A stretch of 38,422 bases of DNA, from the IMG/VR virus record IMGVR_UViG_2925919700_000005, positions 1-38,422 of that record. The stretch is one strand, 5' to 3'. How positions within the stretch are numbered: position 1 is the first letter of the stretch; each line of letters opens with the position of its first letter. The notes beneath the pieces are model-generated. The model was given only the letters and a program-made list of their open reading frames with translations. It searched no databases and had not been told where the DNA came from. Below are positions 4,954 to 32,010 of the stretch, in pieces. A program made the translations under genes and the position numbers. The DNA comes from a virus. Lineage: Duplodnaviria > Heunggongvirae > Uroviricota > Caudoviricetes.

Positions 4954-4975
4954 TTTAGGTCAACCCTTTGGCGTC

Positions 4976-5406: not shown

Positions 5407-5502
5407 TAAATTTCTATCATAAATAAAAATGTTCCGGTGGTGATGCCGGAACTAGGAGGACCAATATCATTATCGCAAAACCGTTTAAGGGGAATTACTA
5501 CT

Positions 5503-6333
5503 ATGAATACTGTTACTGCTATGAATACTGCTGTTAAAACTGCTTCCGTGTCTCTGGTTGTTGATAACACCAAACCGCTGACCATGTCTACTTTGCAGAT
5601 CGCGCAAATGATGGATCGCGTAGACCGCCACCGTGATATTAAGCGAACTGTTGACCGTCTCGTTTCTTCCGGTGTAATTGTCCACACGCCAACGGCGCGC
5701 GAACAACTGGAAGATAAATTTGGTCGTTCTCGTGAAATTGAAGTTTATCTTCTTGATGAACGTTCGTCATATATTGTTGTTGCTCAAATTTCGCCAGAAT
5801 TTACCGCTTTTATCGTTGATGAATGGAAGCGACTGAAAGAAGAAAATGAAAAACTTCGCTCTACTCCGGTTAACCCGTATGCAGACTTTGAAGAAACCGA
5901 TTGGATCGAACTGGCATTAAAGAAAACTCGCGAAAATAAAAAGCTGATTGAACTTCATGTTCGCAAATCCGTAGATAGCCATTCAATGACCCGTCTGTTA
6001 GGAGCTAAAAAGGGCGCTACGAAGGTTAAAGAAGCACTGACGGCCTTGCGTACTGCTGGCTACATTGAGCGCGTCTACGATGAAAATAACAAGCCGTGTG
6101 GGTATGTTGCTAATGACTCTTCTCTGTCTTTCTGCCGCATGAATGCTCACTACCAACTTGAGTTTACTGTTGATGTTCTTCCTGTGCTGGTTGAATTGGG
6201 TGTTCTGGAAGAAGAACAAAAAGCAACTCTGAATCTTCCTAAGCCGAACAACACTATTCTGATTCAAAATAAAGCTGCTAAACAGATTCGTGAATCAGGT
6301 AACGTAATTTCCCTTGTTGATTTTGGGATCTGA
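5503..6333 (+). CDS. Rha-family phage regulatory protein / antirepressor-like
   Basis: N-terminal segment LTMSTLQIAQMMDRVDRHRDIKRTVDRL matches the Rha-type DNA-binding pattern as I recall it; start chosen at ATG 5503 (AAGGGG SD) rather than the track's GTG 5437. Confidence 0.55.
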   Translation: MNTVTAMNTAVKTASVSLVVDNTKPLTMSTLQIAQMMDRVDRHRDIKRTVDRLVSSGVIVHTPTAREQLEDKFGRSREIEVYLLDERSSYIVVAQISPEFTAFIVDEWKRLKEENEKLRSTPVNPYADFEETDWIELALKKTRENKKLIELHVRKSVDSHSMTRLLGAKKGATKVKEALTALRTAGYIERVYDENNKPCGYVANDSSLSFCRMNAHYQLEFTVDVLPVLVELGVLEEEQKATLNLPKPNNTILIQNKAAKQIRESGNVISLVDFGI

Positions 6334-6339
6334 TTAATC

Positions 6340-6374
6340 GCCCGGCGCATAATTGCGCTGGGCTTTTTGTTTTT
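6340..6374 (+). terminator. Rho-independent terminator
   Basis: GCCCGGCGC-ATAATT-GCGCTGGGC (one G-U pair) followed by TTTTTGTTTTT. Confidence 0.7.
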
Positions 6375-6469
6375 ATAGATAACAGCATTTTTGCTGGCAT
6401 CTATAGACCAGTCAAGATTTGGACTCAGCTTCGAGATGAGCGCAGTTTTGCGCCGATTGTTTTACATAC

Positions 6470-6493
6470 AAAAAAGCCACTCCGAAGAGTGGC
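6470..6493 (-). terminator. Rho-independent terminator for the leftward gene pair
   Basis: GCCACTC-CGAA-GAGTGGC preceded by A6 on plus (T-run on minus). Confidence 0.65.
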
Positions 6494-6508
6494 AAAGAGA
6501 ATCAAAAC

Positions 6509-6742
6509 TCAAAAACCTGTTGCTTCTACGATCTGACCATCACCGATCTGAACATAGAATTTAATGTCTAACTTCTTAATATTCTTATAGAATTGGGCGA
6601 TTGAGATCCCATGTTCACTAAGAATCTGTTCTTTCGCTTCCTTACCACGATCCGCTGTATAATAAGCGTAGGCAATATCAGCCATTTGTTCAGCGTTAAA
6701 ACGGGCAGGACGACCGCGAGTAGCTTTAGTAGTCATAGTCAT
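6509..6742 (-). CDS. small basic protein with RGRP (AT-hook-like) motif; putative DNA-binding
   Basis: GGAGA SD; N-terminus MTMTTKATRGRPARF. Confidence 0.5.
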   Translation of the reverse strand: MTMTTKATRGRPARFNAEQMADIAYAYYTADRGKEAKEQILSEHGISIAQFYKNIKKLDIKFYVQIGDGQIVEATGF

Positions 6743-6770
6743 TTCTCCAAATTAAAGTGAATGTTCACCT

Positions 6771-7373
6771 TTATTTAGAGGACTTACATTTTATCGGAAA
6801 AAGTTCTCCATCGTCAATACTCATAAAGAACTCTGCCTTAATCCCGTACTTCTTCAACCGTGAATAGTATGTACCCCGACTTATATCAACCTTGCGAAGC
6901 ACTTCAAAGAACCCTTTAGGATCGTTGTAATAGTGGCTATAACGCACGTTAGCGAGTTCAACGAATAGTTCCCTTGTATCACCATAGCCTTTCTTGAAAG
7001 CCTCGTTACGATAGCGTGTAATTGCGTGATTCAATCTCTTCTGTTTCAACACTTCTCGGATCGGCTTCCACTGCAACCGATAGATAGGACCGTCATCCAC
7101 TCGATAATAACGCTTGATATCAAAATCAAACCAATCTCGGACTCTCCGAAACTCTGTATGTGATGTTCTATGCTTCTTAAAGAAGTTGTGAACGTCTGTA
7201 TAACCATTATCGCGGTAAAACTCTATTAAAATCTCTTTCGCTTCCTCACGACTAAAGCCAGATGTTGTGTAGTCGGTTTTTAAATGCTTATGCTTAACTG
7301 GTAAACGATATTCATGATCGGTACAAGACAAGGCTAATTCTAATTCATCTCTTTGTTGCTGATTAATTAGCAT
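6771..7373 (-). CDS. hypothetical protein (200 aa), transcribed divergently from the terminase large subunit gene
   Basis: AAGGGGGG SD upstream of the ATG (minus strand); basic and Tyr/Arg-rich; no recognisable family. Confidence 0.6.
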   Translation of the reverse strand: MLINQQQRDELELALSCTDHEYRLPVKHKHLKTDYTTSGFSREEAKEILIEFYRDNGYTDVHNFFKKHRTSHTEFRRVRDWFDFDIKRYYRVDDGPIYRLQWKPIREVLKQKRLNHAITRYRNEAFKKGYGDTRELFVELANVRYSHYYNDPKGFFEVLRKVDISRGTYYSRLKKYGIKAEFFMSIDDGELFPIKCKSSK

Positions 7374-7458
7374 ACAACCCCCTTTAATTAATACCCGTAT
7401 TTATCAAAATATCAACAATTTAATAAATACCTTCATATTTCGTAATGAGGGTAATTAC

Positions 7459-9363
7459 ATGAAACTGATTTCAAATAAGGCAAAATTAAAAAAGATTCTT
7501 AAAAATATCTCTGCGGCAATTCGCCCACCTAAAACGATGAAACCTAGCGAATGGGTAGAGGCTAATGTAGTTGCAACCGATGGTGTTAAAGCCGGATCGC
7601 TAATTAAATTGCATCCCTTCCAACGTGGAATGATGGACGCGATCACCGAAGACCGTAGAAAAATTGTGTTTAAATGTTCGGCACAGTTGGGTAAGACCAT
7701 GATTCTTAACGGAATTATCTTCCATCGGATCGCGAGTAACCCTACTAATATTGGGGTGTTGCAAAGTAACGTTAGAGAACTAAATTCTTGGATCGCTGGT
7801 AAGGTGAAGCCAGTATTAGAGGCAACGCCAGAATTAAAGGCGATGATCACCGACAAATCAGACCGTAATGCCGTTAACAACTCATCGATTATTCAGCTTC
7901 GTAACGGATCATTCATGTATTTCATGTCGCTGAACAGTCCATCACACTTGCGCGGTAAAACACTCCCTTTGATTATTCTTGATGAAGTTGATGCGGCTGA
8001 TGAGTCAGACGAAGGGAACCCGATCCAGCTAGCGGAACAACGCGCAACCACTTTCGGGGAAGATGCAAGGATCGTAATTGCTTCCACTCCAACCGCTCGT
8101 GATGGGGCGATTAACCAACAATGGGAACTCTCGGATAAGAGAAAATATCATGTCGTTTGCCAGCATTGCGGACACAAGCACGTAATGGAATGGAGTAACG
8201 TACATTTCGATTGGCATACGATTAACGGTAAATCATTACCCAACCCAGATACAGCCGTTTACCGTTGCCCTGAATGTGAAACCGACTGGACCGAAGGGGA
8301 TCGCCTACGTGCTGTTGCTCAGGGAGAATGGGTCGCCACCGAACCAAACGCGGAAGTAATCGGTTTTCATGCTAACCGCCTTATGTCTCCGTTTAGTTCT
8401 ATCCGTGCGTGTGTGGTGGACTTTGCTGATAGCTACGCGAATATGTCGCTGGCAACGTTCTATAATGTGGTGCTCGGTGAAACCTTCGATGATCTTAACG
8501 AAGACCGCACAGCCGACGAATTAGAAACGCTGAAAACTGATATTAGCCTAGACAATATTCCTGATGATGTACTGGCTCTGGTTGGTGGAGTTGACCAGCA
8601 AAAAGACCGTCTGGAATCTACCTTGCTGGGTATTTCTCGTAAAGGGCTATGCGTAGTTGATCACCGATCATTCTATGATGTGAACTGCGAACGCCACGAA
8701 TCACCAGCATATAACCAGCTTTACAACTTCCTGAAAGCGAAATTCTATACCCGATCCGGTCAACGAATCCCGATGTTATCTGCTTTCGTGGACTCATCGA
8801 ACGGACGAGCTACAAACGTGATCTATCGATTCTGCACACAATGGCAAAACCTAACAGCCATTAAAGGGGCAAGCAATGTTGATGCTCCAATCCTTCCGGT
8901 CAAGGACACAAGAACGGGTGGTTTTACTCTTAAAATTCTGGGCGTAAACAACCTTAAGACGATGATCCGTGAAATGATTAACCGGAACTTGAGAGACAGC
9001 GATCCTCATACGGTCTTCCAGATTGGTGACGTTCCTGATGACTATTGCGAGCAATTGTTATCTGAACAGTTGAAACGGCAGGGTAATACCACACGTTGGG
9101 TAAAAGTTGGTCAGCAACGAAACGAGGCTCTCGACTGCCTGGCTTACTCCTATGCTGCTTCTCGCCATGTACTCAATAAAATGTCATGGGAAAAACTCGA
9201 AGCCATCAAAGATAGTTTGAACCGTGAACCAGAAGAACCCGTAGAAGCTCCTAAATCGCAATCTAACGAGCAAATAGAAGAAACTAAGCCAATCACACGA
9301 CCGCAACGTCAAAACATCGCCAGACGTCCAAATAGAGGCCGTAGCTGGGTAACATCGTTCTAA
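7459..9363 (+). CDS. terminase large subunit (lambda gpA-like ATPase/nuclease)
   Basis: Walker A CSAQLGKT and Walker B LPLIILDEVD; Cys/His cluster CQHCGH...CPEC; 634 aa, immediately upstream of the portal gene. Confidence 0.9.
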   Translation: MKLISNKAKLKKILKNISAAIRPPKTMKPSEWVEANVVATDGVKAGSLIKLHPFQRGMMDAITEDRRKIVFKCSAQLGKTMILNGIIFHRIASNPTNIGVLQSNVRELNSWIAGKVKPVLEATPELKAMITDKSDRNAVNNSSIIQLRNGSFMYFMSLNSPSHLRGKTLPLIILDEVDAADESDEGNPIQLAEQRATTFGEDARIVIASTPTARDGAINQQWELSDKRKYHVVCQHCGHKHVMEWSNVHFDWHTINGKSLPNPDTAVYRCPECETDWTEGDRLRAVAQGEWVATEPNAEVIGFHANRLMSPFSSIRACVVDFADSYANMSLATFYNVVLGETFDDLNEDRTADELETLKTDISLDNIPDDVLALVGGVDQQKDRLESTLLGISRKGLCVVDHRSFYDVNCERHESPAYNQLYNFLKAKFYTRSGQRIPMLSAFVDSSNGRATNVIYRFCTQWQNLTAIKGASNVDAPILPVKDTRTGGFTLKILGVNNLKTMIREMINRNLRDSDPHTVFQIGDVPDDYCEQLLSEQLKRQGNTTRWVKVGQQRNEALDCLAYSYAASRHVLNKMSWEKLEAIKDSLNREPEEPVEAPKSQSNEQIEETKPITRPQRQNIARRPNRGRSWVTSF

Positions 9364-9435
9364 TAACTCGCCGTCCTTCGGGGCGGCTTACTCCTAAATA
9401 TTGTTAATCCAATAACAATTAAATAAGGGGTAATT

Positions 9436-9930
9436 ATGAGTTTAGAACTAATTCCCTTAGTAATTCGTAAAGGCGAAAAAATCACGCTGGCGAATGAAGA
9501 GGGTGTAACCATTCAGGTCGGAAATAGTAAAGCTATCGTTTATCAAGTCGATGATGCACCGGAAAATCACGAGATTAAAACATTAGATTTTGCCGAGGGT
9601 AAATATACCATCGTAATAACTTTTGATGAAGAACTGGTATCAATGCAGGAATTAACTGTTTTACCAGTCTTTGCCAAACAATCCAAAAAACAGTATCTGC
9701 GGGAAACTATCGCCTTAATCGAGCAAGTTATTTTCGCCCGTTTATCTGGGGACGAAGCCGCATTATCTGCAATGACCGTGAAAGGGAATACTTTCGCCTA
9801 TGAGTCATTGGGTGTTCTCCAGACTCTAAAAGTCGATTATGAACGTCAGTTATCTAAAGTAATTCAAGCCGAACGACGTAAACAGGGAATTAGCCCTATT
9901 AAAAATATCAAATTACGTCTTACGCGATAA
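9436..9930 (+). CDS. hypothetical head-assembly region protein (164 aa)
   Basis: AAGGGGTAATT-ATG initiation region; lies between the terminase and portal genes. Confidence 0.6.
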   Translation: MSLELIPLVIRKGEKITLANEEGVTIQVGNSKAIVYQVDDAPENHEIKTLDFAEGKYTIVITFDEELVSMQELTVLPVFAKQSKKQYLRETIALIEQVIFARLSGDEAALSAMTVKGNTFAYESLGVLQTLKVDYERQLSKVIQAERRKQGISPIKNIKLRLTR

Positions 9931-9940
9931 GGGGTAAATC

Positions 9941-11452
9941 ATGTTTAATCTTTTTCGACGCAAAAAGGCGGTAGAAACTCCAGTTAAAACTAATCACCGC
10001 CAGCAACAACAAAAAATCTTTATCGACAAACAAGTAGAAAAATTCCAGAAAGATTTGTCTAAGCGTTCTTTGGGCTTAGTCGGTGATCGCATTGATGGAC
10101 AGCTTCAACAAGACACCATTACAGGAACCTTCAATAAGGCTCTCAAATCGAACGGTAAGCGCCTTTATGATCAGGGTCGTACTCTGGCTATAAACAATGC
10201 TGTAGGTAAGCGATACAAGCAGTATATCGTTGACCAAGTTGTTGGTACGGGGCTTGATCCGAAACCATCAATCGTTAAATCAAATGGCAAACTTGACACC
10301 GCACTGAATAAGCAGATCGAGAATGCTTTCTGGAAGTGGGCGCAGAGTGCTAAACGCTTCTCTCGCAACGGTCGCTTTAACTTCCGTGAAATGCTGGCAA
10401 TGGCAGAATCTGAACGTGTTCAGGGTGGAGAATGCTTCATCGTTTTAACCAAAGAGAACAATGAGTTACAAGTTTCTATTCTGTCTGCTGATAGGTGCGA
10501 CTGGTCGCTTAGTCGTGAAATAAGCAAAGAACGTGCGATCTATCAGGGGATTGAGTATGACGTAGACACAATGCGCCCTGTAGCATACTGGTTTAGAAAA
10601 ATCAATCTACTGACTCAGACCTACACTGGCGAAAATTATCGCGTAGATGCTTCTCAGGTGTGCCACTACTACCAGCCACTGTGCGCGGAAAGTTTACGTG
10701 GTGTGACTGACTTCCTGCCAGTGATTAAGGATATTGCGCATCAAGAAGCGTTCCGCGAAACCGCGATCGTCCAGAAACGTATTGCGGCTAGTTCTATGGG
10801 CTTTATCGAACGTCCTAAAGATTCTGGTGACGATTTTGATACTGGTGAAGAGGATGAACAATATCAAGCGCCGGAAGTAGTACAGGACTTTGCACCGGGT
10901 ACTATTCAGGAATTGCCGGAAGGGGCAACAATCAAGAGCATTCAATCATCGCAAAATGGCGATGACTTTAACAGCTTCAATGATGCGATGTTCACTAGCG
11001 TATCAATGGGCTTAGGCGTGTTCAAACAGGGCTTAACAGGAGATTGTTCACAGATCAACTACTCAGCCGCACGTTTTGGTGAATTAACTCAGCGTAACCG
11101 CATTAAAGCACTGCAAAACAAATTAATTGAAACAGTGGTATTGCCAATTTTCGAAGCATATCTACGCCATTATTCCGCGCGTGGTATTGTTCCGATTCGT
11201 ATTACTGCAATTCCTCATATTATCGATAACACTACTATTATTCGTCCGCGTTTTGAATCCGTCGATCCTATTAAAGACGTAAACGCCGAGATTGCTTTAA
11301 TTCAAAATGGTCTTAAATCACGTACTGCTGTTATTCTTGAACGTGGTGATGATCCTGAAAAAGTATTCTCAGAGATTCAAGCCGAAAAGAGCGCACTAAA
11401 TATTATCGTTGATGGTGAGAGCAAGGATAACCCTTCTCAAACCGATCCCTAA
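9941..11452 (+). CDS. portal protein
   Basis: 503-aa ORF between the terminase large subunit and the protease/capsid gene, the canonical portal position; size and acidic C-terminus fit. Confidence 0.8.
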   Translation: MFNLFRRKKAVETPVKTNHRQQQQKIFIDKQVEKFQKDLSKRSLGLVGDRIDGQLQQDTITGTFNKALKSNGKRLYDQGRTLAINNAVGKRYKQYIVDQVVGTGLDPKPSIVKSNGKLDTALNKQIENAFWKWAQSAKRFSRNGRFNFREMLAMAESERVQGGECFIVLTKENNELQVSILSADRCDWSLSREISKERAIYQGIEYDVDTMRPVAYWFRKINLLTQTYTGENYRVDASQVCHYYQPLCAESLRGVTDFLPVIKDIAHQEAFRETAIVQKRIAASSMGFIERPKDSGDDFDTGEEDEQYQAPEVVQDFAPGTIQELPEGATIKSIQSSQNGDDFNSFNDAMFTSVSMGLGVFKQGLTGDCSQINYSAARFGELTQRNRIKALQNKLIETVVLPIFEAYLRHYSARGIVPIRITAIPHIIDNTTIIRPRFESVDPIKDVNAEIALIQNGLKSRTAVILERGDDPEKVFSEIQAEKSALNIIVDGESKDNPSQTDP

Positions 11453-11497
11453 TAACCAACGGGGGCGCAATGCCCCCAATTAATTAAAGGTGATTAA

Positions 11498-13507
11498 ATG
11501 CTTAAATTTCGCCGCGATCTTAACGGTTACGGTGGAGTTATTAACGAAGGGCATAACGATCAATACGAGTTTGAAATTGCTTTCTCAAGTACACAGCCTT
11601 ATCAGCGCCAATTTTGGGATGAGCAAAATCAAGAAATGGTGGTATTAGATGAAATTCTGGTACATACACCGGAAGCGGTTGATCTGTCTCGTCTGAATAA
11701 TAACGCTCCGTTGCTGTTCAATCATAATTTCGATAATCACATTGGTGTCGTTTGTAACGCTCGAATCGATGCGGATAACGTAGGCCGTGCTCTGGTTAAA
11801 TTCTCTAAGCATGGGACTTTGGCTAATGATATTCGTAATAAAGTCATTGAAGGTACGATGGAAAAAATTTCTGTCGGTTATGACATTAAAGAATATCACA
11901 TCGACTACGCTAAATCGCAACTCATTGTTTCTAAATGGATTCCTCACGAAATTTCGTGGGTCACGGTGCCAGCGGACGATTCGGTCGGTTTAAATCGCTC
12001 TCTAAATACTATCACAGTTAATTTGGAGGCTAAACGCGATATGACTAAAGAACAAATCGAACAAGTTAAAGACGAAGAAGAAAAAGAAGTCGCTCAGGTT
12101 GAAGAAACTCCGGTAGAAGAAAATAAAGAATCGGAAGTTGAAGAAACTCAAGAGCGCCAAGTTGAAGAGAATGAAGAAAATGAAAATCTCGAAGACGGAA
12201 AAGACGCTGAACATCCTGAAAGTGTTGATGATGATAGTTCAACTGTTCGGGAAGCAGAAGAAATAAAAGAAGAACGTGAAGCTGCTCCGGTTGAAGAAGA
12301 AAAAATCGAAGAAGTGGCTGAACGTTCCGAAGAAGACGAAGAAGAAATTCGCGAAATTGCACGCGAACTAAATATTGATGACGAAGAATTGAAACGCGCA
12401 TTGGCAAATAAAGAAATGACGCCGGAAGCATTCCGCACTAAGGCACTAAATAACATTACCAATGCTCAACGTAATAACGAACAAATTAAGGACTCTAAAA
12501 TGGAAAAAACTTTTGACCTGAACAACGTAATTCGCTCTCTGGTAGATGGTGAAGCTCTGGGTGCTAACGAAGCCGAGTTTTCTGCAATGGCTGCTACTGC
12601 AACTATGCAGCGTGGTCGTGCTGCTCGTGGTGGCTCTGTATTCGTTCCGGCTGCTGCTATGCGTGCTGCTGCTGCTGGTAACACCAAAGCCGATCTGACT
12701 GCTATCACCGACGAAAAACTGATGACTGAATCCTACATCGAAATGCTGATGCCGGAATCTGTTCTGGGTCGTCTGGGTGTGACTGTTTACAGTGGCTTGA
12801 ATGCTCCGACCGCTATTCCAAAAATGACTAAATCCAGCGTTGATGCTTTCGGCTTCGTTGATGAAAACGGTGCTGCGCCGGAAAGCAAAGCTGAATTTGC
12901 GAACGTGAAACTGTCTCCTAAGACTTTCGCTGGTGGCAACCCGATTAGCCGTCAGTCTCTGAAAACCGTTCCGGGTATCGCTACCCTGATCACTGACCAC
13001 ATTAACAAAGCTGTTCGTATCAAACTGGAACAACTGATTCTGTCTGACAAAGAAAATGCTCGTGGTCCGGCTGGTCTGGTTAAACAACTGGTAGACGGTG
13101 GTCGCGTAGAGAAGAAAGCTGCTTTCTCTTACAAAGATTTCCTGAAAGAAATTGCTAAACTGACCGACGCTGGCGTTCCTGCTCAGGCGATCAAGTTTGC
13201 GATGAGCGGTGCAACTGCTGCCGAACTGGAATCTACCCTGAAAGATAACGGCGTTTCCGGTTATATCATCGAAAACGGCAAACTGGCTGGTTACGAAGTA
13301 GTTACTTCTGGTGTTATTCCGGCAGATCACATCGTTCTGGGTGACTTCTCCGGCATCACTATCGGTGAGTGGGGCGGTCTGGAACTGGATATGGACGACA
13401 CTACCTACCGTGCACAGTCTGCTATCGTTCCGCGTATCTGGGTAGATCTGGATTATGTTGTTACTCAGCCGGAAGCTCTGAAAGTTCTTCACCTCTCCGC
13501 TGAATGA
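11498..13507 (+). CDS. prohead protease - scaffold-like acidic linker - major capsid protein fusion (HK97-type)
   Basis: N-terminal ~170 aa carry an S78-protease-like motif HEISWVTVPADD; aa ~190-330 are an E/K-rich coiled coil; the C-terminal ~330 aa look like an HK97-fold capsid protein; terminator follows. Confidence 0.75.
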   Translation: MLKFRRDLNGYGGVINEGHNDQYEFEIAFSSTQPYQRQFWDEQNQEMVVLDEILVHTPEAVDLSRLNNNAPLLFNHNFDNHIGVVCNARIDADNVGRALVKFSKHGTLANDIRNKVIEGTMEKISVGYDIKEYHIDYAKSQLIVSKWIPHEISWVTVPADDSVGLNRSLNTITVNLEAKRDMTKEQIEQVKDEEEKEVAQVEETPVEENKESEVEETQERQVEENEENENLEDGKDAEHPESVDDDSSTVREAEEIKEEREAAPVEEEKIEEVAERSEEDEEEIREIARELNIDDEELKRALANKEMTPEAFRTKALNNITNAQRNNEQIKDSKMEKTFDLNNVIRSLVDGEALGANEAEFSAMAATATMQRGRAARGGSVFVPAAAMRAAAAGNTKADLTAITDEKLMTESYIEMLMPESVLGRLGVTVYSGLNAPTAIPKMTKSSVDAFGFVDENGAAPESKAEFANVKLSPKTFAGGNPISRQSLKTVPGIATLITDHINKAVRIKLEQLILSDKENARGPAGLVKQLVDGGRVEKKAAFSYKDFLKEIAKLTDAGVPAQAIKFAMSGATAAELESTLKDNGVSGYIIENGKLAGYEVVTSGVIPADHIVLGDFSGITIGEWGGLELDMDDTTYRAQSAIVPRIWVDLDYVVTQPEALKVLHLSAE

Positions 13508-13647
13508 AATAACGTAGAACCTTCTGTACCTTCCCCCGATTTGGGGGAAGAAAATCTGATTCCATCTCAGGAAGAAGAATCCCAGACGGTTACGGCGAAA
13601 GCCCCAGCTAAAAAGGTGGGACGTCCACCGAAAGCAAAATAATAATT

Positions 13648-13676
13648 AGCCCTGCCTAACGGTGGGGCTTTTTTGT
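13648..13676 (+). terminator. Rho-independent terminator after the capsid gene
   Basis: AGCCCTGCC-TAAC-GGTGGGGCT stem followed by TTTTTTG. Confidence 0.7.
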
Positions 13677-13704
13677 ATGTAAATACTCCATAAAGGGGGT
13701 AACT

Positions 13705-13995
13705 ATGTTCAAATTATCAGAATCACAATTATCAAGAATGTTCCGAAGTGCTCCTGTATTTTCGGTGGAAGGTGGTAAATCAATTCGTGCTTATCATGAA
13801 ATTACTACTACCGACGAACAAGGGGTAATGACAGAAACAGAGTTTCTATTTTGTCGTGAGGGAGACTTAAAGCAAGGTGATATTGTCATTGTAGAAAATC
13901 AGCGTTTCAAAGTTCAATACGTTAAGCGCAATGGTGACAATACAACTGATTGCTTTATCACTCTGGCAGGGGGTACACATGCTCGCTACCGTTAA
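13705..13995 (+). CDS. putative head-tail connector/adaptor protein (96 aa)
   Basis: AAAGGGGGTAACT-ATG; position directly after the capsid gene; functional call is by position only. Confidence 0.5.
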   Translation: MFKLSESQLSRMFRSAPVFSVEGGKSIRAYHEITTTDEQGVMTETEFLFCREGDLKQGDIVIVENQRFKVQYVKRNGDNTTDCFITLAGGTHARYR

Positions 13996-14401
13996 TAACA
14001 TGCCTAGACTGAAAATCAAACGCGCCTTGCAAGATATTATCGAACAAGATTTAGGTCTGGCTTTAAACGTAGAACAAACTCAGCAAGGCTTTAGTGATGA
14101 CGTGGTTTGTTGGATCACCGGAATGAATGAGACTTACACGCGTGTTCGTGGCGGTAATGCAATGCAAGCTGAATGTGTTATCGAAATGCAATTGTATTCT
14201 CAGATTCATGAAACCAAAATTCATGAGGGTATTTGCCAGATAATCCAGATTCAGCCGGATAACCCACGATTTAAAGATTTGGGCTTCTCTATTTCAGATA
14301 TCACTCCAGTAGCTTCTAATACCGATTATGACGATGATTCTAGTGATGGGGGTATCGTTGGGACACTTAGCCTTAAATTTTCTTATCTAGCGCGTTTTTA
14401 A
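13979..14401 (+). CDS. putative head-tail joining / tail terminator-like protein (140 aa)
   Basis: ATG 13979 has an AGGGGG SD and overlaps the upstream stop (coupling); the track's 13931 start is in the same frame. Confidence 0.5.
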   Translation: MLATVNNMPRLKIKRALQDIIEQDLGLALNVEQTQQGFSDDVVCWITGMNETYTRVRGGNAMQAECVIEMQLYSQIHETKIHEGICQIIQIQPDNPRFKDLGFSISDITPVASNTDYDDDSSDGGIVGTLSLKFSYLARF

Positions 14402-14410
14402 GGGGTAATA

Positions 14411-15244
14411 ATGAATATTACACAAGATAACTTAGACATTTTCACGGGGTCGCATGTTGAAGTCTCCGTGTCTACTATGGTGGATAACCAGCCGGATTTT
14501 TTCGATCCTGCATTTAGTCCTATCGAGAACATCGCAGCATTCCCGACGATAACCGAATCCACAGAGATCCAGACGTTAGAAGAGTATGATCAGGACGCTA
14601 CGGGTAAACTTGCTGGCTATCGTAAACTTGAATCAACTACGTTAGTAGTAAACCGTGTTCTGGATGACGAACATCAAGACATGTTGATGAAAGCGGTGAA
14701 TGATAAAACTCCTTTACGCTTTCGTATGTTCTATGTTGTGAACTCTGGTTACAGTGCTGCTAACACAGGTTACTACGTCATCTTTGACGCTTTCGTCTCG
14801 TCACATAAAACAAAATCCGGCGATAACAAAGCTGTAACACTGGAATTTAAACTTGAACCAGATGGCGGGATTTTGGCAAGGGGTATTGCTACCGAAGGCC
14901 GGATCTTACGTCAGGGTGATTTTGGTATTGGTGCTGGTGTAAATCCATTCACTGGTCCGATTGATAGCGAAGCATTAGCCGGAAACCGTTTCGTAACTTA
15001 TCAGGGATCAAGCGCATCTAATCCATTTAGTGCTGATACTTCACTAATTCACGTTCAACCTAATGAAGATGGTGGATGGCAATTAACTTGCACCGCTTCC
15101 GGCGCACCACGTTTACGAGTTCGCACAGTCCAGAAAGACGGTAATTCGGGATGGGTGAAAGTGTATTCCACAGAAGAAAAACCGACACCAGCCGAGATTG
15201 AAGCCGTTTCTATCCATGACCGGATCGATTTCGGGGAATACTGA
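14411..15244 (+). CDS. virion structural protein (277 aa); C-terminus shares a KPTPAEI motif with the tail fibre
   Basis: AAGGGGTAATA-ATG; C-terminal EEKPTPAEIEAVS versus fibre DKPTPAEIGAYS; hairpin and T-rich tract follow. Confidence 0.55.
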   Translation: MNITQDNLDIFTGSHVEVSVSTMVDNQPDFFDPAFSPIENIAAFPTITESTEIQTLEEYDQDATGKLAGYRKLESTTLVVNRVLDDEHQDMLMKAVNDKTPLRFRMFYVVNSGYSAANTGYYVIFDAFVSSHKTKSGDNKAVTLEFKLEPDGGILARGIATEGRILRQGDFGIGAGVNPFTGPIDSEALAGNRFVTYQGSSASNPFSADTSLIHVQPNEDGGWQLTCTASGAPRLRVRTVQKDGNSGWVKVYSTEEKPTPAEIEAVSIHDRIDFGEY

Positions 15245-15317
15245 TTGCTTCTCTAAATAAAACATGACGCGGGAGGTTAACGCCTCCCTTATTCCTGTTT
15301 TATAGTGAGGTGATTCG

Positions 15318-18300
15318 ATGCAGTCGATCCAATTTAAACGAACAAATGTTTCTGGCAAAAAACCAACGCCGGAACAATTACAGGTCGGTGAGGTGGCAAT
15401 CAACCTTAAAGACCATGTTATTTTTACCAAAGACCGAGATCATGAAGTAGTTCAAATCTCTGTTTCTCCTGAAACTCACGCGGCACTAGAATCTAAAGTT
15501 GATGCTAACAAACAAGAATTGGATAGCACAATTGCAGTAAATGACCGCAATATTCACGCTAAAGTAGATGAAATTAAACAAACTACTGATTCTACTATCG
15601 CAGCAAATCACGCAGAAATTAACAATAAAGTTGATGTAATTAAACGCGAAACCGACGCGACAATCGAGGCCAATAAAAATAAAGCTGCTTCCGATCTTGC
15701 TGGTGTTAAAGCTGAATTGTCGGATACTATCAACGCTAATAAAAATGCGGCTGCTGTAGCAACTCAGGAACTGGACACCCGCATCAATAAAAAAGTTGAT
15801 GATATTAAATCCCGTACTGATGCAACCATCGCAAGCAATCACAAAGCAATCAATGACAAGGTTGATTTGATTAAGGCAGAAACTGACCGCACTATCGCAG
15901 CAAATCAAGCCTATGCGGAAAATCAGTTAACTGACACCTACAATAACCTTACTGGTGTGATTGCAGCTAATAAGCAAGAGGCAGCGGATAGCGTCGCAGC
16001 ATTAACCCGTGATGTTGAAGCCAAAAATTCAGCAATTCATAGCAAAGTTGACAATAACAAGTCTTACACTGATTCTGAACTTGCACGTTTAGAAAGCCGT
16101 ATTGATGCAGCCGATGGATCTGCTGATGGCAAGTACATCAAAAAACACGTAAACACTTATACTGATGGTTATTTGCTGTCTAAGACCGCAAACTATTTTG
16201 ATGATCCAAATGCGCGTAATCTTAATTACTTTGGTGCATTCCGCATGAATGACCTGGCGGGTCATATTGCAATGATCTTGCATGTTCCGCATCCATCTGG
16301 TGTTAATCATGCTCGTGGCTTTGAGTTCACTTATGGGTCTAATCCGGTTCATACGGTAAGAACATACGGCTATGATGAATTGGGTCATTTGGCATATTCT
16401 CACCGCATGTATCATGAAGGTGATAAACCTACTCCTGCCGAAATTGGCGCATATTCGAAAGCAGAAATTGACCGACTGTTCCAGAAGACGCTTAATTTTG
16501 GGATCGAGGGTGGTTGGTTTAAACTAGGCACTTTGACAATGCCACAGCAACACGGTCGTAGTGCTAAGATCCGCTTAGTTGGTGGTAACGGTTATAACGT
16601 CGGGATGAATGGACAAGCCAATATTATCGAATTGGTGATTCGATGCGGCAACAATAGCCCGAAAGGTGTTGTATTCAATGCGTATTATACTATTTGGCAT
16701 TATGAACAACATTTTTGCGCTATTCCAACCGATGGCGACAATTACGATCTTTACGCTTACTACGGTGCACATACAGGATTTGTTTTAGCAGAATATCAAG
16801 TTTCTTCCGGTGGTGTTTCTTTAAACCTGTTGGATACTCCTGAATATCTGGGTGGTGAAAAACCTGTTGCAGATGAAATTTTTGATGCTCTTAACATTTC
16901 ATCGTTCACTAACTTTAGCAACCGTGGAACGTTAAATTTTGCGGGAAACCATCAAGGCCAATATGACATTGAGCATTTGAACGAACAACAAACTAACAGC
17001 AAAAAGATGTTGCGTCGCTTCCGTAGTTCTGCTCCTGCCACTATCTGGCATGAGACAGTTGATGATAACGCATATCGTCTTGCTACTGGATACGAAGATA
17101 CAAATCAGGAATTATTGCTGACAGCAACAACCGGGTTACATGTCAAGAGATTAACATTGGATGGTGGTGCTGCTGGTGGAAATGCTGGTATTGATATTCG
17201 TCGAGGACCAAACGAATCAAGCCATTTTAATTTTATGGATTATCGAACTGGTCAAGATGTTCGTAATGGCTGGTTTGGTTTTGGTGATTTGACGACCAAA
17301 GATTTTATTTGGTGGAACGATAACGGTCAAAACTCGATAAACTTGATCGAAAACGGTGAATTGCATATTACTGGCGGTAAAGGCCAGAAAATTGTAATGA
17401 ATAGCGAAGTTGCATTATCTGAAAATGCTCGTTTGGCTGTTAAAGGTGGCAATTATGGCTTAATTTTTAGAAATGATGGTACTGGTTTCCATATACTGAC
17501 TACCGATTTAAAAGATTCTTTTGGAAATTGGAATAATCGTAGACCATTCAGCTATAATTTTGATGATGGTGGACTATATTTAGGTGGCACTGAAACTGCT
17601 CGTTGTTTGCATCTGGGAATTGATGGTAGCACCCGTCTTGAGGAGAACTTAGTTTTCAGGGCGGGATCTCGTCAATCAATGGACTATATTGAAATGATCC
17701 ATTGGGGTAACAGTAATACCGCTCGTGACAACGTTTTGAGTATGAAAGACTCGAAAGGATTCCTTGCTGAATTTGAACGCGTGGGTGGGACTAACGGCGT
17801 TAAAACCAGATTCTTTGGTGAAACCTTCACTGACGGTACATTATACCTAAATCAGATGAATAATAGCTCTGAACGATTCTCTATCAACAATTGGGGAAAT
17901 TCAGAAGTTGGACGCGCGGCAGTAATGGAAATCGGTGATTCCAAAGGTTATCACTTCTATACTGAACGCAGGACAGATAACAGTTTGGCGTTTGATGTTG
18001 CTGGCGCTTTTACTGTGCATGGACCTAACGGAATAACCATCAAAAACTCAACTGGTGCACGCCATATCTGGTTTAGAGATGATAGCGATGCAGAAAAGGC
18101 TGTTATCTGGGCTACAGATGAGGGTATTTTACATATACGAAATAATCATGGGGGTTCATTTAGTCATCACTTCCAGGGTGCAATGATTAAAGCGGGAGAG
18201 CAAGTTCCTTATAATAGTGAATACGCTCTTATCCGTGGTGAGGTTTCTGGTGGTGCATGGGATGACTGGCGCAACCGTCCTGCTGGTATTCTCTTAGATT

Positions 18301-18839: not shown

Positions 18840-18877
18840 TTGGAAAGCGGGGAGAAATCTCCGCTAAGGATTCTTAT

Positions 18878-19174: not shown

Positions 19175-19176
19175 TT

Positions 19177-19482
19177 ATGGCTGGATGGGTTGCTGGAAGA
19201 ATGGCTAATGCCATTAGCATTTATGCTAATGGCGGCTGGTTTGGTATCCCTAATGGTTGGGTGGCGGATTCATGCGGTATTGTGTCTGTTCATGCCGAAG
19301 CCGTTGGTGGCGGTGGTGACCTGGACGCAGAATTATATGTAAACGGTACTCTCGAATCAGGTCATCACGCTGGTAATGCAGGAAGTTGGGGAGCAAGTTC
19401 TTTAGTTGGTGCTGGCGCTACTGTCAGTTTTAGTATTGGTAAAGGAAGTTTAAACCACTTCCAATTTAGGAGAATGCAATAA
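19177..19482 (+). CDS. glycine-rich small protein, paralog 2 of 3 (101 aa)
   Basis: Starts 2 nt after the paralog-1 stop; GIPNGWVADSCGIVSVHAEAVGGGGD. Confidence 0.65.
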   Translation: MAGWVAGRMANAISIYANGGWFGIPNGWVADSCGIVSVHAEAVGGGGDLDAELYVNGTLESGHHAGNAGSWGASSLVGAGATVSFSIGKGSLNHFQFRRMQ

Positions 19483-19784
19483 TGGCATTTTGGGTAGATG
19501 GTGCTTTAGGTAATAGAGCAGGTAAAGCGAATCAAGGATGGTTTGATATTCCTAACGGTTGGACACCTGACGCTTTCGGCACGGTTTCATTTGGTGCTCA
19601 TTCTTCTGGTGGTGGCGGTGGTGACTCAGAATTGCTTTTGCATGGCTTTTGTGTGTCTGGAAGTCATAAGGGTCATGATTGGGGACAGATCCATTCTTGT
19701 ATTGTGCCGCAAGGGGCGGTAATTACCGTTAGCACAAATAGGGGGGTCGCTCATCTTCGTTATAGACGTTTGAGCAACCGCTAA
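19482..19784 (+). CDS. glycine-rich small protein, paralog 3 of 3 (100 aa)
   Basis: ATG overlaps the paralog-2 stop (TAATG); DIPNGWTPDAFGTVSFGAHSSGGGGGD. Confidence 0.65.
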   Translation: MAFWVDGALGNRAGKANQGWFDIPNGWTPDAFGTVSFGAHSSGGGGGDSELLLHGFCVSGSHKGHDWGQIHSCIVPQGAVITVSTNRGVAHLRYRRLSNR

Positions 19785-19838
19785 ATAAATAGAATTACGG
19801 GTATGTGCCCTATTGTTTAAAATAGAAGGAAAAGAATA

Positions 19839-20312: not shown

Positions 20313-20320
20313 TATTATCT

Positions 20321-20349: not shown

Positions 20350-20606
20350 CCAATTCTAAATAAACATATCGAATTAACTTAAGAGGAAACAAGAATGAAT
20401 ATTAATGAAATGTTAGCCGCACTCTCTCCGAAACGTGAATCTTTGACCATCGGTGGATTCACTTTCTATGCTCGCCCTATGTCAGTAAAAGAATTTAACG
20501 AACATGTTTTCAATACTGATAAAGAAGACCGTGATGAACGTTCTATTCTTCGTTGTATTGAAGATGAAGACGGTAAGCCAGTATTTGAATCTATGGAACA
20601 AGTTAA

Positions 20607-20615
20607 GGCACTGTA
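20607..20615. repeat. IS10 target-site duplication, left copy (GGCACTGTA)
   Basis: Identical 9-mer immediately flanks both ends of the element. Confidence 0.95.
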
Positions 20616-21944: not shown

Positions 21945-21953
21945 GGCACTGTA
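21945..21953. repeat. IS10 target-site duplication, right copy (GGCACTGTA)
   Basis: Perfect copy of 20607-20615. Confidence 0.95.
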
Positions 21954-22070
21954 TACTAACGTTCGAAGTGAATTAATCGGTTTAGTTGCTCAAGCGTCAT
22001 TGATGCAAGATCCGGCAGTAATTGAAAACGAGGTAAAGTAAACCCGCTTCTGAATTTCTATTTCCGGCAA

Positions 22071-22412
22071 ATGATGAGATCGGGGCTTAGTAAAGATGAA
22101 ATGGATAATATGCCAATCACTCTGTTTTGGAAATTATACATTTTCGACACCTACTTAGAACCACAAAGCCCCGCGTTTCATGATATGCAGAATGCGATGT
22201 TGCAATATTCCATGTATATGACGTCGCAAGGAATGACACGCGAAACTGCACGTAAACTCAAGCCTAGCCAATTCCAATTAATTAGAGAAGAAAAACTCTT
22301 TAAAACTAAAGAAGAACTGGAAGAAATTGCACGCAAGAAAGAAGAAGAACGTAAAGCGGCAATGCTGAACATGTTTGATCCATCTTTGCTTGAGAAACTC
22401 AGAAGCGGTTAA
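22071..22412 (+). CDS. tail assembly protein (lambda T-like position), possibly the downstream part of a frameshifted chaperone
   Basis: This frame is -1 relative to the chaperone and open from 22026; ends just before the tape measure start. Confidence 0.5.
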   Translation: MMRSGLSKDEMDNMPITLFWKLYIFDTYLEPQSPAFHDMQNAMLQYSMYMTSQGMTRETARKLKPSQFQLIREEKLFKTKEELEEIARKKEEERKAAMLNMFDPSLLEKLRSG

Positions 22413-22423
22413 AGGGGTAATTT

Positions 22424-24853: not shown

Positions 24854-24856
24854 TTA

Positions 24857-24903
24857 AAAGCCCTCATAGTGATAAATAATCATAAAACTATGGGGGCTTT
24901 TTC
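24857..24903 (+). promoter_or_regulatory. Hairpin AAGCCCTCATAG...CTATGGGGGCTT that sequesters the GGGGG Shine-Dalgarno of the next gene; also terminator-like (T-run)
   Basis: 12-bp stem with one G-U pair and a 19-nt loop, followed by TTTTT; the right arm GGGGG lies 9 nt upstream of ATG 24905. Confidence 0.5.
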
Positions 24904-24904
24904 T

Positions 24905-26118: not shown

Positions 26119-26164
26119 TCCCTTCTCCCTAAGCCTAGTAAATAACAGCATGGAGGTATTCAAC

Positions 26165-26584
26165 ATGCTAAAAACTAGGCTTATCACCGATTACATCAAT
26201 TCTTTAATAGGTCAGGAGTTCGTTCAAGGCGAGAATGATTGCAATCTAATTGCATGTAAGATCATCGATATTCTCGCTGGTACTGACCTATATAATTCTC
26301 TTTATAAAAAATATTCAACTAAAGAAGAAGGCTTGAAAATCTGCAAAGAATTAAGCGGGTATTCAAATATCCTTCAACCAATTAAGAAACATTTCAAATT
26401 AGTCACTGATGATTTACAGGACGGCGACTTACTGGTCACAGCCCACAAATTAGGGAACCGCAAATATTATTCCGTAGTTCCTCATTATTCCGGTTATGGC
26501 CTCGTTGAAGAAGATGGTATCTGGATGACCATTCCTGTTTCAGACATTGAATATGAACAAGTTTATAGATTCGGGGGTGAATAA
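26165..26584 (+). CDS. tail assembly protein with NlpC/P60-like Cys-His motif (lambda gpK-like C-terminal domain)
   Basis: GGAGG SD; QGENDCNLIACKI (candidate catalytic Cys) and a downstream His (TAHKLG); stop overlaps the J start. Confidence 0.5.
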   Translation: MLKTRLITDYINSLIGQEFVQGENDCNLIACKIIDILAGTDLYNSLYKKYSTKEEGLKICKELSGYSNILQPIKKHFKLVTDDLQDGDLLVTAHKLGNRKYYSVVPHYSGYGLVEEDGIWMTIPVSDIEYEQVYRFGGE

Positions 26585-30360: not shown

Positions 30361-30378
30361 AATTTAATTCTAATAATT

Positions 30379-30418
30379 AATCCCGCTTAATTCTTTTGGG
30401 TTAGGCGGGATTATTTTT
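30379..30418 (+). terminator. Rho-independent terminator after the J-like gene
   Basis: AATCCCGC ... GCGGGATT followed by TTATTTTT. Confidence 0.7.
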
Positions 30419-30462
30419 ATCTAAATAATTCTGCCATTAAATTATAAAATATCGGGGGCGTA

Positions 30463-30741
30463 ATGACTGAAATTATATATGGCGGTATCGGTGTTATCGC
30501 CTTAATTTGTGGTGGTCTTTGGAGACTTCACCGAAATCAATTAGCAACAGAAAATAGATTGTCGAAATTAGAGTCCAATGATGCATTGTTTAATCAGAAG
30601 TTTGAAACAATGCAAAGTAACCACGACCAGATCGCCGAGAGAGTTTATCGCATGGAACAAACACTACACGGTATAGAGAAGAAAGTGGTTGCGATGGACG
30701 CCAAATTTGACCAAGTTCTCGACATACTCAAACAAAAATAA
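30463..30741 (+). CDS. membrane protein with one N-terminal TM helix and a coiled coil (holin- or spanin-like)
   Basis: TM segment IIYGGIGVIALICGGLW followed by a coiled-coil region; ATCTAAATAATTCTG box upstream; lies four genes upstream of the endolysin. Confidence 0.5.
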   Translation: MTEIIYGGIGVIALICGGLWRLHRNQLATENRLSKLESNDALFNQKFETMQSNHDQIAERVYRMEQTLHGIEKKVVAMDAKFDQVLDILKQK

Positions 30742-30759
30742 TAATAAAGGGGTGAATAT

Positions 30760-30930
30760 ATGAAGAATAAACTTAAGAAATATTTTGGTTATCTCTTGAT
30801 TATCGCCCTCACTTATAACGTAGCAATTAGACCTCTGCTAACGTCCTTTGGGCTTGAACTCCCGGCTATGACCGTGGATGAGCAATTGCTAAGGACACTG
30901 GCGGGGGTCTTTTCGTTATTAGGGGGCTAA
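30760..30930 (+). CDS. small membrane protein (56 aa), below the ORF-track cutoff
   Basis: AAGGGG SD 8 nt upstream of the ATG; translation MKNKLKKYFGYLLIIALTYNVAIRPLLTSFGLELPAMTVDEQLLRTLAGVFSLLGG; stop abuts the next start. Confidence 0.45.
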   Translation: MKNKLKKYFGYLLIIALTYNVAIRPLLTSFGLELPAMTVDEQLLRTLAGVFSLLGG

Positions 30931-30931
30931 C

Positions 30932-31615
30932 ATGGCAACCAGTACCAATAAACGAAACGCTCTAAGGACTAAGAAAGCGTTACGCCAATGGACTGATAAA
31001 GCAACCGATACATTCGAAAGGGCGATAGGGGAAGGGGCGATCTTTGCTTCCAGAGCACTCCAGAAGAAGATTAACAAGAATGTTGATAGACCTACTCGCT
31101 GGACTCAGCAAGCTGTAGGTAATACCAACTACAAGAACCGATCAGGGACGAGACACCAAATCTTCATCAAGGGCGCAAGGGATAAGGACAAGAAGATCGG
31201 CAGTCAAGACGACTATCTGAAACACTATTTCGATGGTGGCAAAATCAATAAGCTAGTGCCAATAGCTAACGGTAAGGTCTTAGACTCCCACGGGAACATT
31301 AAGGCCATTAAAGGCGGTAAGATGATGCGTAACATCGAAAATGGCAACTTCATCAAGGTAGAGAACAAGGAAGGGACTTTTATCATGAAGAAGTACAAGC
31401 CTAAGAAATCCCGAACCAAACGCGCTAGGAATGGATCGGCGGTGGCAAAACGTCGCTTAGAGAAACGCATACAGAAACAGAGCAAGCGAATTGTTGCCGT
31501 TAAGTCAGATAAAATTTCTACTCGTTATTCGACGCTAGGATCGTGGGAAAGCAACGAGGAAATGATGCTTAAGAACATTAATAAGCACATTAAATCGCGC
31601 ATGAGATACGTTTAA
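30932..31615 (+). CDS. highly basic hypothetical protein (227 aa)
   Basis: AGGGGG SD; Lys/Arg-rich throughout; no recognisable family. Confidence 0.6.
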   Translation: MATSTNKRNALRTKKALRQWTDKATDTFERAIGEGAIFASRALQKKINKNVDRPTRWTQQAVGNTNYKNRSGTRHQIFIKGARDKDKKIGSQDDYLKHYFDGGKINKLVPIANGKVLDSHGNIKAIKGGKMMRNIENGNFIKVENKEGTFIMKKYKPKKSRTKRARNGSAVAKRRLEKRIQKQSKRIVAVKSDKISTRYSTLGSWESNEEMMLKNINKHIKSRMRYV

Positions 31616-31653
31616 TCCATAAATACCCTCATAGAATCTTATGGGGGTATAAC
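31616..31653 (+). promoter_or_regulatory. Second copy of the CCCTCATA...TATGGGGG hairpin, sequestering the SD of the 31654 gene
   Basis: ACCCTCATA-GAATCT-TATGGGGGT; the right arm is the SD 7 nt upstream of ATG 31654. Confidence 0.45.
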
Positions 31654-32001
31654 ATGGCTAAAAATATTTTTACTGAATTTCCTACTTATCCGGTCGATCA
31701 GCTTTCCGGTATTTTTATTAATGGCATTAGCCCAGAATCCATGACACATGATTTTGAGGCGAAGAGAGTTAAACATAAACAATATAAAGAATGTATCCGC
31801 GATCATGAAAAAGGGACCGTGTTTTGTGTCGCTACATTGGCTAAACGTCCTAAGTATCGTTTTCGTGTAGGACAAGAAGTTGATGTGGTTAATCCTTATA
31901 GCTTTAACTGTCTGGGCGATGCACGCGCGGTGTGTGTAGGCACTGCTCCTTATTATATCAAGGGTATGCGCTTTATTGGTTATATCTTCGAAATGATCTA
32001 A
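31654..32001 (+). CDS. hypothetical protein (115 aa)
   Basis: ORF with GGGGG SD; Cys-containing; no recognisable family. Confidence 0.55.
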   Translation: MAKNIFTEFPTYPVDQLSGIFINGISPESMTHDFEAKRVKHKQYKECIRDHEKGTVFCVATLAKRPKYRFRVGQEVDVVNPYSFNCLGDARAVCVGTAPYYIKGMRFIGYIFEMI

Positions 32002-32010
32002 GGGGGTAAT

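Follow-up and report, generated by a model that had tools for sequence, protein, structure and literature searches.

The prophage in IMG/VR virus record IMGVR_UViG_2925919700_000005 raises the question of why so many of its genes carry a run of G residues a few bases ahead of the ATG. The whole stretch analysed (the window) is 38,422 bp long, has 41.8% G+C, and is nearly all prophage (∼37 kb) from E. coli, inserted in hicB. The original prediction described a highly uniform, G-rich decamer at no fewer than ten genes and used it to revise several start codons. Pairing, spacing and comparison with relatives indicate that the motif is very probably a Shine-Dalgarno (SD) sequence, in a G-for-A variant used by a subset of genes, mostly those for virion and lysis proteins. 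The G-run is an ordinary SD signal of a known variant class and no new kind of element.

G-run sites and their distribution

All ten ATGs singled out earlier (5503, 7459, 9436, 9941, 13705, 14411, 22424, 30760, 30932 and 32011) exist, and each is preceded by a G-rich motif. The decamer AAGGGGTAAT occurs exactly at 9436, 14411 and 22424 and with one mismatch at 9941 and 32011. The remaining five starts have looser versions, namely AAGGGGAATT (10-nt spacer) at 5503, TGAGGGTAAT with three G only at 7459, AGGGGGTAAC at 13705, AAGGGGTGAA at 30760 and TAGGGGGCTAAC at 30932. With only five of the ten starts within one mismatch, the 'highly uniform' decamer holds as a consensus but not as an exact sequence. 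Aligned on the run, this consensus is [T/A][T/A]A(A/G)GGGG-T-A-A-(T/A). The count of at least ten genes also holds, but as an underestimate, six further sites having been missed, before 7373 (minus strand), 13979, 24905, 26584, 30463 and 31654. Allowing up to one mismatch, there are nine copies of the decamer in the window, against 2.5 ± 1.6 in shuffled sequence, and none of 100 shuffles reaches nine.

If a G-run site is defined as a run of at least four G ending 4–10 nt upstream of a gene start, such sites are present at 15 of the 39 phage gene starts, while the density of runs, 109 over the two strands, predicts only 0.44. Fourteen of the sites have a spacer of 4–8 nt between run and ATG, and the site of 5503 has one of 10 nt. 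The base following the run is T at 11/15 sites compared with 23/94 other runs (p=4e-4), and TAA follows at 6/15 compared with 3/94 (p=2e-4). The other 24 genes have AGAGGA, GGAG, AAGGTGAT or no SD sequence, so the absence of a G-run is no argument against a start.

Using one classifier on all compared gene sets, G-run sites precede 38% of the genes of this prophage (15/39) and 17/41 in the close relative L001, as against 5/54 E. coli host genes (9%; p=0.0016 versus the window), 9/70 lambda genes (13%; p=0.0034 versus the window), 1/14 genes in phage DCP80, and from 2/24 to 6/21 in six loci of diverged relatives. Within the prophage they concentrate in the virion and lysis block, where 13 of the 24 genes between 7459 and 32364 have one, versus 2/15 elsewhere. 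The T-even-like tail-fibre cassette (85–96% identical) has no G-run SDs and evidently came in with its own, and the early-looking genes favour AGAGGA(T). The G-run SD is a flavour enriched in this lineage despite its low GC.

Two further matches to the decamer lie elsewhere. An exact copy of AAGGGGTAAT at 13820–13829, inside gene 13705, has an in-frame ATG at 13828, 2 nt past the G-run; this spacing is too tight for a normal SD and the copy is not a ribosome-binding site, being probably due to chance, although it could serve as a weak internal start. A near-copy at 4981–4990 (within CAAGGGGTATTGACA, 4981–5017) overlaps the -35 hexamer of the best plus-strand sigma-70-like promoter (TTGACA-17-TATGAT), upstream of a 110-aa ORFan at 5074, and is not a ribosome-binding site either.

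Pairing with 16S rRNA and choice of start codons

When paired with the 3′ tail of E. coli 16S rRNA (GAUCACCUCCUUA) in RNAduplex, the 15 G-run sites give energies of -8.0 to -14.5 kcal/mol (mean -10.2). The GAGG (-7.3) and GGAG (-8.2) sites of the same prophage pair more weakly, making the G-run the strongest class in the window. The duplexes comprise 5–9 base pairs; sites with five G include one G·U wobble, and six of those with four G a one-base bulge. The run lies at the canonical SD distance from the ATG. GGGGG(U) would pair with 3′-CCUCC(A)-5′ through one internal G·U wobble, while AAGGGG can alternatively pair one register upstream, with 3′-UUCCUC-5′. A T following the run would pair with the next rRNA base, and its enrichment there is what base pairing with the rRNA leads one to expect. 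The A/T-rich spacer of 4–8 nt would place the ATG in the P site. Where an upstream TAA abuts the motif (9941, 14411, 22424 and 32011), terminating ribosomes could re-initiate, which would couple translation of neighbouring genes.

From left to right (plus strand unless stated, energies in kcal/mol from the same calculation), the first site is AAGGGGA at 5487–5493 (-8.3), before the Rha/Ant-like regulator gene at 5503. On the minus strand, AAGGGGG at 7378–7384 (-11.9) precedes 7373, encoding a 200-aa ORFan, and its counterpart in Salmonella relatives is AAAGGAGGTGTGA. The large terminase gene (7459) has GAGGGT at 7447–7452 (-6.1), within the 3′ arm of a hairpin at 7428–7453. The head-tail joining gene (9436) has AAGGGGTAAT at 9425–9434 (-8.6), unchanged between the E. 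coli, Salmonella and Providencia lineages, and the portal gene (9941) has AAGGGGTAAA at 9929–9938 (-8.6), overlapped by the upstream TAA. Gene 13705 has AAGGGGGTA at 13693–13701 (-12.1), replaced by GGAGGG, AGGAGG or GGAGA in relatives; the site of 13979, AGGGGGTA at 13968–13975 (-10.8), lies inside the end of gene 13705. At 14400–14409 there is a further AAGGGGTAAT (-8.5), overlapped by the stop TAA upstream of 14411, with GCGAGGTTCTA in relatives, and at 22412–22421 another (-8.0), for the tape measure gene (22424). The distal tail gene (24905) has GGGGG at 24892–24896 (-8.4), and the tail tip gene (26584) has the strongest site, GGGGGTGA at 26573–26580 (-14.5), with GGAGGTGAATAA or AGGAGGATGAATAA in relatives. 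The remaining sites are GGGGG at 30454–30458 for 30463 (-8.6; kept in the Salmonella relative), AAGGGGTGA at 30747–30755 for 30760 (-12.5), AGGGGG at 30921–30926 for 30932 (-9.3; relatives AGGGGGGTAAT or TGGGGGTTTAGC), GGGGGTA at 31643–31649 for 31654 (-9.8; GGAGG in one E. coli-lineage relative), and AAGGGGGTAAT at 32000–32010, overlapped by the upstream TAA, for the M15 endolysin gene at 32011 (-12.5).

The relatives compared are Salmonella and Providencia prophages with portals 62–65% identical, and other lineages with tail proteins 47–64% identical. At orthologous sites they have GGAGG, GAGG or AAGAGGTGA instead of the G-run. Thus TAAGGGGTAAATC at the portal site stands opposite TAAGAGGTGAGAA, CAGGGGGTACAC at 13979 opposite CAGGAGGTACAC in Providencia, and TCGGGGGTGAATA at 26584 opposite TTGGAGGTGAATAA and AGGAGGATGAATAA, while the 31654 and 7373 sites are GGAGG in some relatives. 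By this comparison the G-run appears exchangeable with canonical GGAGG or GAGG. Within the E. coli lineage the runs are nearly invariant, with an occasional GGAGG. The simplest account of this uniformity is lineage history: canonical GGAGG or GAGG sites would have drifted by A-to-G transitions that keep wobble pairing, and would then have been frozen inside the E. coli lineage while differing in its Salmonella and Providencia kin.

Known SD sequences offer close parallels. The canonical E. coli SD (UAAGGAGGUGAUC against the 16S 3′ end) likewise lies 4–10 nt from the ATG, is complementary to GAUCACCUCCUUA, has an A/T-rich spacer, and is what takes the place of the G-run at orthologous sites. 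It differs in its central A, which is G here and gives a G·U wobble, and the G form is several times commoner among the prophage genes than among the host genes. In the lambda S gene, GGGGG is documented as a near-consensus SD, access to which is controlled by an upstream stem-loop (bioRxiv 10.1101/2025.05.14.654169). At 31654, 24905 and 13705, GGGGG similarly forms part of the 3′ arm of a predicted hairpin, facing a C-rich 5′ arm; in contrast to lambda S, these sites have no dual-start motif, and no sequence relationship to lambda S is established. The product of 31654 is not holin-like: inspected by eye, it has no evident membrane-spanning (hydrophobic) segment. In Prodigal, GGxGG and AGGxGG are scored SD classes with a 5–10 bp spacer (PMC2848648), and the sites with five G are these classes with x=G. 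Those with four G (AAGGGGT) fit only the shorter Prodigal motifs, and the shifted register AAGGGG:UUCCUC describes them better.

Several points weigh against the SD reading, or against its being the whole explanation. Ribosome binding and coupling at these sites are what we infer from sequence, and at 5503 the spacer of 10 nt is rather long for an SD. Single-sequence folds predict that the SD is base-paired in a local hairpin at 7459, 13705, 24905 and 31654, so these four sites are probably regulated and not constitutively open. The enrichment over host genes and lambda exceeds what SD function alone explains. Finally, the gene for the major capsid protein, presumably the most expressed, has AAGGTGAT and no G-run, and the class is therefore not a simple tag of high expression.

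As to start codons, all ten listed starts coincide with the RefSeq (PGAP) starts of the 93%-identical prophage L001. This agreement is not fully independent, because PGAP too models ribosome-binding sites, and a test that ignores such sites is therefore more telling. At nine of the ten, there is no in-frame ATG, GTG or TTG between the proposed ATG and the next in-frame stop upstream. The tenth, 5503, has in-frame alternatives in the window at 5437, 5440 and 5443, and here the orthologous start (MNT...) in three diverged relatives (Providencia, Salmonella) has an in-frame stop 9–27 nt upstream. The same test fixes the G-run-marked starts at 13979 (not 13931) and 24905 (not 24869). With in-frame stops in the window or in orthologues leaving no upstream alternative, the proposed value of the motif for choosing starts is borne out, and it is a sound guide. 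A start without a G-run can be added. The mechanical call for open reading frame (ORF) 34499–35785 begins at a TTG, and within it lies an ATG at 34610 that follows an ATAAATA box (see below) at 34571 and an AGAGGAA SD. The TTG start is probably wrong; from 34610 the product would be a 391-aa endonuclease-like protein, comparable in length to a 390-aa gene in the Salmonella relative L042.

ATAAATA boxes and hairpins over the SD sites

Four SD-occluding hairpins are predicted. A terminator-like hairpin, AAAAGCCCTCATAGT/ACTATGGGGGCTTTT at 24856–24901 (plus strand, like the next three), begins 3 nt past the tape-measure stop and contains the SD of 24905 in its 3′ arm. It is the longest inverted repeat of the window (minimum free energy -21.7, z -4.7, probability P that the SD is paired 0.99), and each of four lineages folds its own equivalent. 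Another, the 12-bp hairpin AUACCCUCAUAG/UUAUGGGGGUAU at 31623–31650, occludes the SD of 31654 (z -3.9, P 0.96) and overlaps a box ATAAATA at 31619–31625. The terminase SD is occluded by UACCUUCAU/AUGAGGGUA (7428–7453; z -3.0, P 0.82) following a box ATAAATAC, the whole spanning 7423–7453, and the SD of 13705 by UACUCC/GGGGUA following a box GTAAATAC (13680–13701; P 0.45). The 5′ arms (CCCTC, CCTTC, CTCC) come directly after ATAAATA(C). As a repeated element in its own right, CCCTCATAG was rejected: its two exact copies (24861 and 31626) are both hairpin 5′ arms, and at up to one mismatch there are 7 copies versus 5.4, which is no excess.

All 16 copies of ATAAATA in the window are intergenic, counting ORF 34499 from 34610, while in shuffled sequence 3.1 ± 1.8 copies are expected between genes and 8.9 ± 2.8 within coding sequence, and no shuffle is as extreme (0/500 and 0/200). 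The copies are at 400(-), 630, 1231, 2818, 3173(-), 3231(-), 3542(-), 4449, 5419, 7398(-), 7423, 19785, 24872, 31619, 34571 and 37880(-), where (-) marks the minus strand, and the related CTAAATA or GTAAATA occurs at 9395, 11397, 13680, 15254, 20357, 26139 and 30422. Most genes preceded by an intergenic gap, indeed nearly every one, have (A/C/G)TAAATA 20–60 nt upstream. Boxes occupy orthologous places in relatives, and of the non-coding sequence ahead of the terminase gene, only the block TAATAAATAC is invariant in four lineages. The signal is in the location of the copies and not in their number, as ATAAATAC at one mismatch shows no global excess (52 versus 53). Compared with a sigma-70 promoter, the box lacks the T at -7 of the -10 hexamer, and no -35 is conserved. 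Consensus sites of sigma-70 type are under-represented in both halves of the window (28 versus 44–46 in shuffles), and the strongest of the late region (10/12) falls within the tail-tip gene.

These features suggest, by analogy with T4, a layer that would be added to the SD reading and is not strictly a rival to it. Ahead of the leading gene in several late units, the G-run and the TA following it would form the 3′ arm of a hairpin whose 5′ arm is the anti-SD-like CCCTC, CCTTC or CTCC right after a T4-late-promoter-like box, (A/C/G)TAAATA. The SD would be occluded in read-through RNA, whereas RNA begun 6 nt past the box, for example near 7435, 13692 or 31631, would lose the 5′ arm and be translated. 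Since the hairpins at 24905 and 31654 begin 3–8 nt past the upstream stop, a terminating ribosome could open them too. We regard this layer as possible but tentative. Such SD-sequestering leaders are known for T4 genes e, soc, 49 and I-TevI (PMC3014915), and the T4 late box NATAAATA lies at -13 to -6 (PMC1524935). With this spacing, the anti-SD pentamer falls at -5 to -1, just outside the predicted transcript. The likeness takes in the NATAAATA-like box, the hairpin that rises from it in predicted folds, in which the SD pairs with the 5′ arm, and a predicted start 6 nt past the box that would exclude this arm.

The comparison between lineages favours it in part. In diverged relatives, each orthologous leader folds its own SD-occluding hairpin, with a 5′ arm complementary to whichever SD variant occurs (CUCC/GGGG, CUUUC/GAGGG, CUCCU/AGGAG, UCUC/GGAGA; CCUCAU/AUGAGG versus UCUCGU/ACGAGG), but RNAalifold on MAFFT alignments of five lineages finds only 1–2 compensatory pairs. 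Ten of the 15 G-run sites, moreover, are without such a hairpin. The box stands ahead of early-looking genes too, a misfit for a purely late signal, and AT-rich words are generally commoner between genes (in lambda, 9/15 ATAAATA copies are intergenic). The setting also differs from T4, the 37-kb prophage being temperate and having a terminase and portal of lambda type, and its arrangement is read from DNA sequence. A gp55-, gp33- or clamp-like protein has no sequence match in PHROGs, Pfam or PDB among the early and ORFan proteins, though a diverged analogue may exist. For the 150-aa early protein, modelling gives a generic alpha/beta fold that is not sigma-like, its best Foldseek match (E = 0.02) being not significant, and the AlphaFold model of the 200-aa protein (pLDDT 41) is unusable. 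The literature on P1 late promoters yielded no usable consensus. T4 Alc, together with degradation of host DNA, shuts off cytosine-containing DNA, and the idea that gp55 of a superinfecting T-even phage reads the boxes was for this reason judged weak.

A longer form of the box, TATAAATA(A/G)TAGTGA, is present at 1230–1244, 3166–3180 (minus strand), 4448–4462 and 34570–34584. Three of these four copies are soon followed by a hairpin and a T-rich stretch ahead of the next SD (3153–3167, 4459–4480 and 1272–1290), and these leader hairpins co-vary in Salmonella relatives (GUUGA..UCAAC versus GGUGA..CACC). They are possibly promoter-proximal terminators or attenuators.

Two other explanations compete with the SD variant. 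The G-run class might mark a post-transcriptional regulon, either as the site of a phage or host RNA-binding protein or nuclease, or as an escape of late messages from factors that target canonical SDs, such as a T4 RegB-like GGAG endoribonuclease or the GGA-binding CsrA. The concentration of G-runs in virion and lysis genes, the preference of early-looking genes for AGAGGA(T), and the exchange of tail-fibre DNA with T-even phages would all suit such a regulon. It is nevertheless very improbable, as orthologous late genes of relatives freely use GGAGG or GAGG, GGAG itself stands at eight window genes (four of them in the late block), nothing is conserved beyond the SD and its A/T spacer, and searches of the ORFans against PHROGs, Pfam and PDB found no candidate factor. 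The remaining explanation, that G-runs play no part in initiation and lie near ATGs by accident of composition or as one side of GC-rich terminator stems, has next to no chance of being right: some runs in the window are indeed terminator stems (1273, 9380, 11461, 13664 and 20332) and the SD at 24892 itself lies within a terminator-like stem, but the idea is refuted by the counts against run density and shuffles, by the fixed spacing and rRNA complementarity, and by the keeping of sites across 87–99% identical relatives though nearby bases vary.

The prophage family and what the sites mean

The gene set is that of a temperate, siphovirus-like phage. Besides the Rha/Ant-like regulator (5503), it includes a small-terminase-like protein, a GpA-type large terminase (7459), the head-tail joining protein (9436), a lambda-type portal (9941), a protease-capsid fusion, a major tail protein, the tape measure (22424), distal tail (24905) and tail tip (26584) proteins, an M15 peptidase endolysin (32011), all those with positions on the plus strand, and a UvsW-like helicase. 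Prophages with 92–95% identity to a 24-kb query from the window occur in 12 out of 5,426 complete genomes of E. coli, each with at least 80% of the region. The element in strain OkiPb01713 interrupts the hicB antitoxin gene and has a 559-aa serine recombinase at its end; in L001 the split hicB lies at 5688–5996 and 43469–43588, and the adjacent toxin gene hicA is intact. A scan of IMG/VR gave E. coli-lineage copies only, one of species-representative genomes with the tail-tip protein gave no match, and the diverged relatives were reached through protein matches. No close isolated phage was found among 50,697 phage records, the top portal match being 37.6% identical, in Escherichia phage DCP80 (L002, PQ671644.1). 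Positions 1–17645 of DCP80 hold a terminase-portal-capsid module homologous to that of the prophage and no T4-type head genes, although this 141-kb phage is filed under Tevenvirinae; either the genome is a hybrid or its assembly or classification is at fault.

Divergence within the family is mosaic. Between the E. coli and Salmonella members (the window versus L003–L005 and L042), head genes are 62–65% identical, while the tail-module protein queried, from gene 25465, is 87–89% identical. The distal part of the tail fibre (1,173 aa) and the next three small genes (∼16400–19800) have 85–96% DNA identity to long-tail-fibre regions of T-even phages, a likeness that points to recent exchange between temperate prophage and T4-like phages. 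Free-standing genes resembling homing endonucleases (GIY-YIG; DUF723/CapR; NUMOD3) sit between late genes in relatives (L001 18530–19552 and 23502–24539, L005 13727–14773, L042 10599–11372) and are absent from the window; three of the four begin ATG GAA ATT AGG, and one has GATAAATACTATTAAT upstream.

A 1,329-bp copy of IS10 / ISVsa5 (20616–21944), flanked by a 9-bp target duplication, GGCACTGTA, at 20607–20615 and 21945–21953, interrupts gene 20395. This is the first of two short genes upstream of the tape measure gene and, by position, a tail-assembly chaperone; the prophage is probably defective for tail assembly. The two short genes (L001 29704–30383; window 20395–20619 plus 21945–22412) resemble the chaperone pair G/GT. 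No SD precedes the second (annotated start 22110), and its reading frame is already open a little ahead of the first gene's stop (...GAAAACGAGGTAAAGTAA), which suggests that a programmed -1 frameshift joins the pair.

ORFans are encoded at 63–368, 1317–1601, 4501–4953, 5074–5406, 6509–6736 and 6771–7373. In the early region, the 150-aa protein (4501–4953) is highly polymorphic, with 43–96% identity over 75 clusters among otherwise similar E. coli and Shigella prophages. Its AlphaFold model (pLDDT 65) has an alpha/beta domain and an acidic disordered tail, and its allelic diversity is reminiscent of immunity-region proteins. About 11 iterons, TTTCAGGGGCAAAAAT as read on the minus strand, are found at 3629–3817 with spacings of 13, 21–22 or 42–43 bp. 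They lie inside a gene-free region of 1.4 kb (3112–4500), adjoining the two best sigma-70-like promoters of the window (3589–3533, minus strand), and could be an origin, an operator or a partition array.

Annotators of this prophage family can rely on the G-run motif to mark true starts; it settles 5503, 13979 and 24905 against longer ORFs, and gene finders that give GGxGG a low weight could mis-call such starts. The prophage also adds a case in which SD sites tolerate A-to-G changes through G·U wobble and the flavour of SD follows the lineage and not the host. The box and hairpin architecture is a better lead than the motif itself. It is conceivable, if doubtful at present, that a family of lambda-like temperate prophages in E. 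coli, Salmonella, Providencia and Leclercia uses T4-late-type promoters, (A/C/G)TAAATA without a -35, read by an unrecognised phage factor, and that the anti-SD arm at -5 to -1 deliberately hides the G-run SD of the genes that open several late units, so that only RNA initiated at the box or opened by a ribosome is translated. If so, the form 'GGGGGTA' would be shaped partly by pairing with the box-adjacent 'TACCCYC', and an uncharacterised transcription factor, with a T4-style coupling of transcription start to translation, would be at work in a temperate phage none of whose relatives has been isolated and sequenced.

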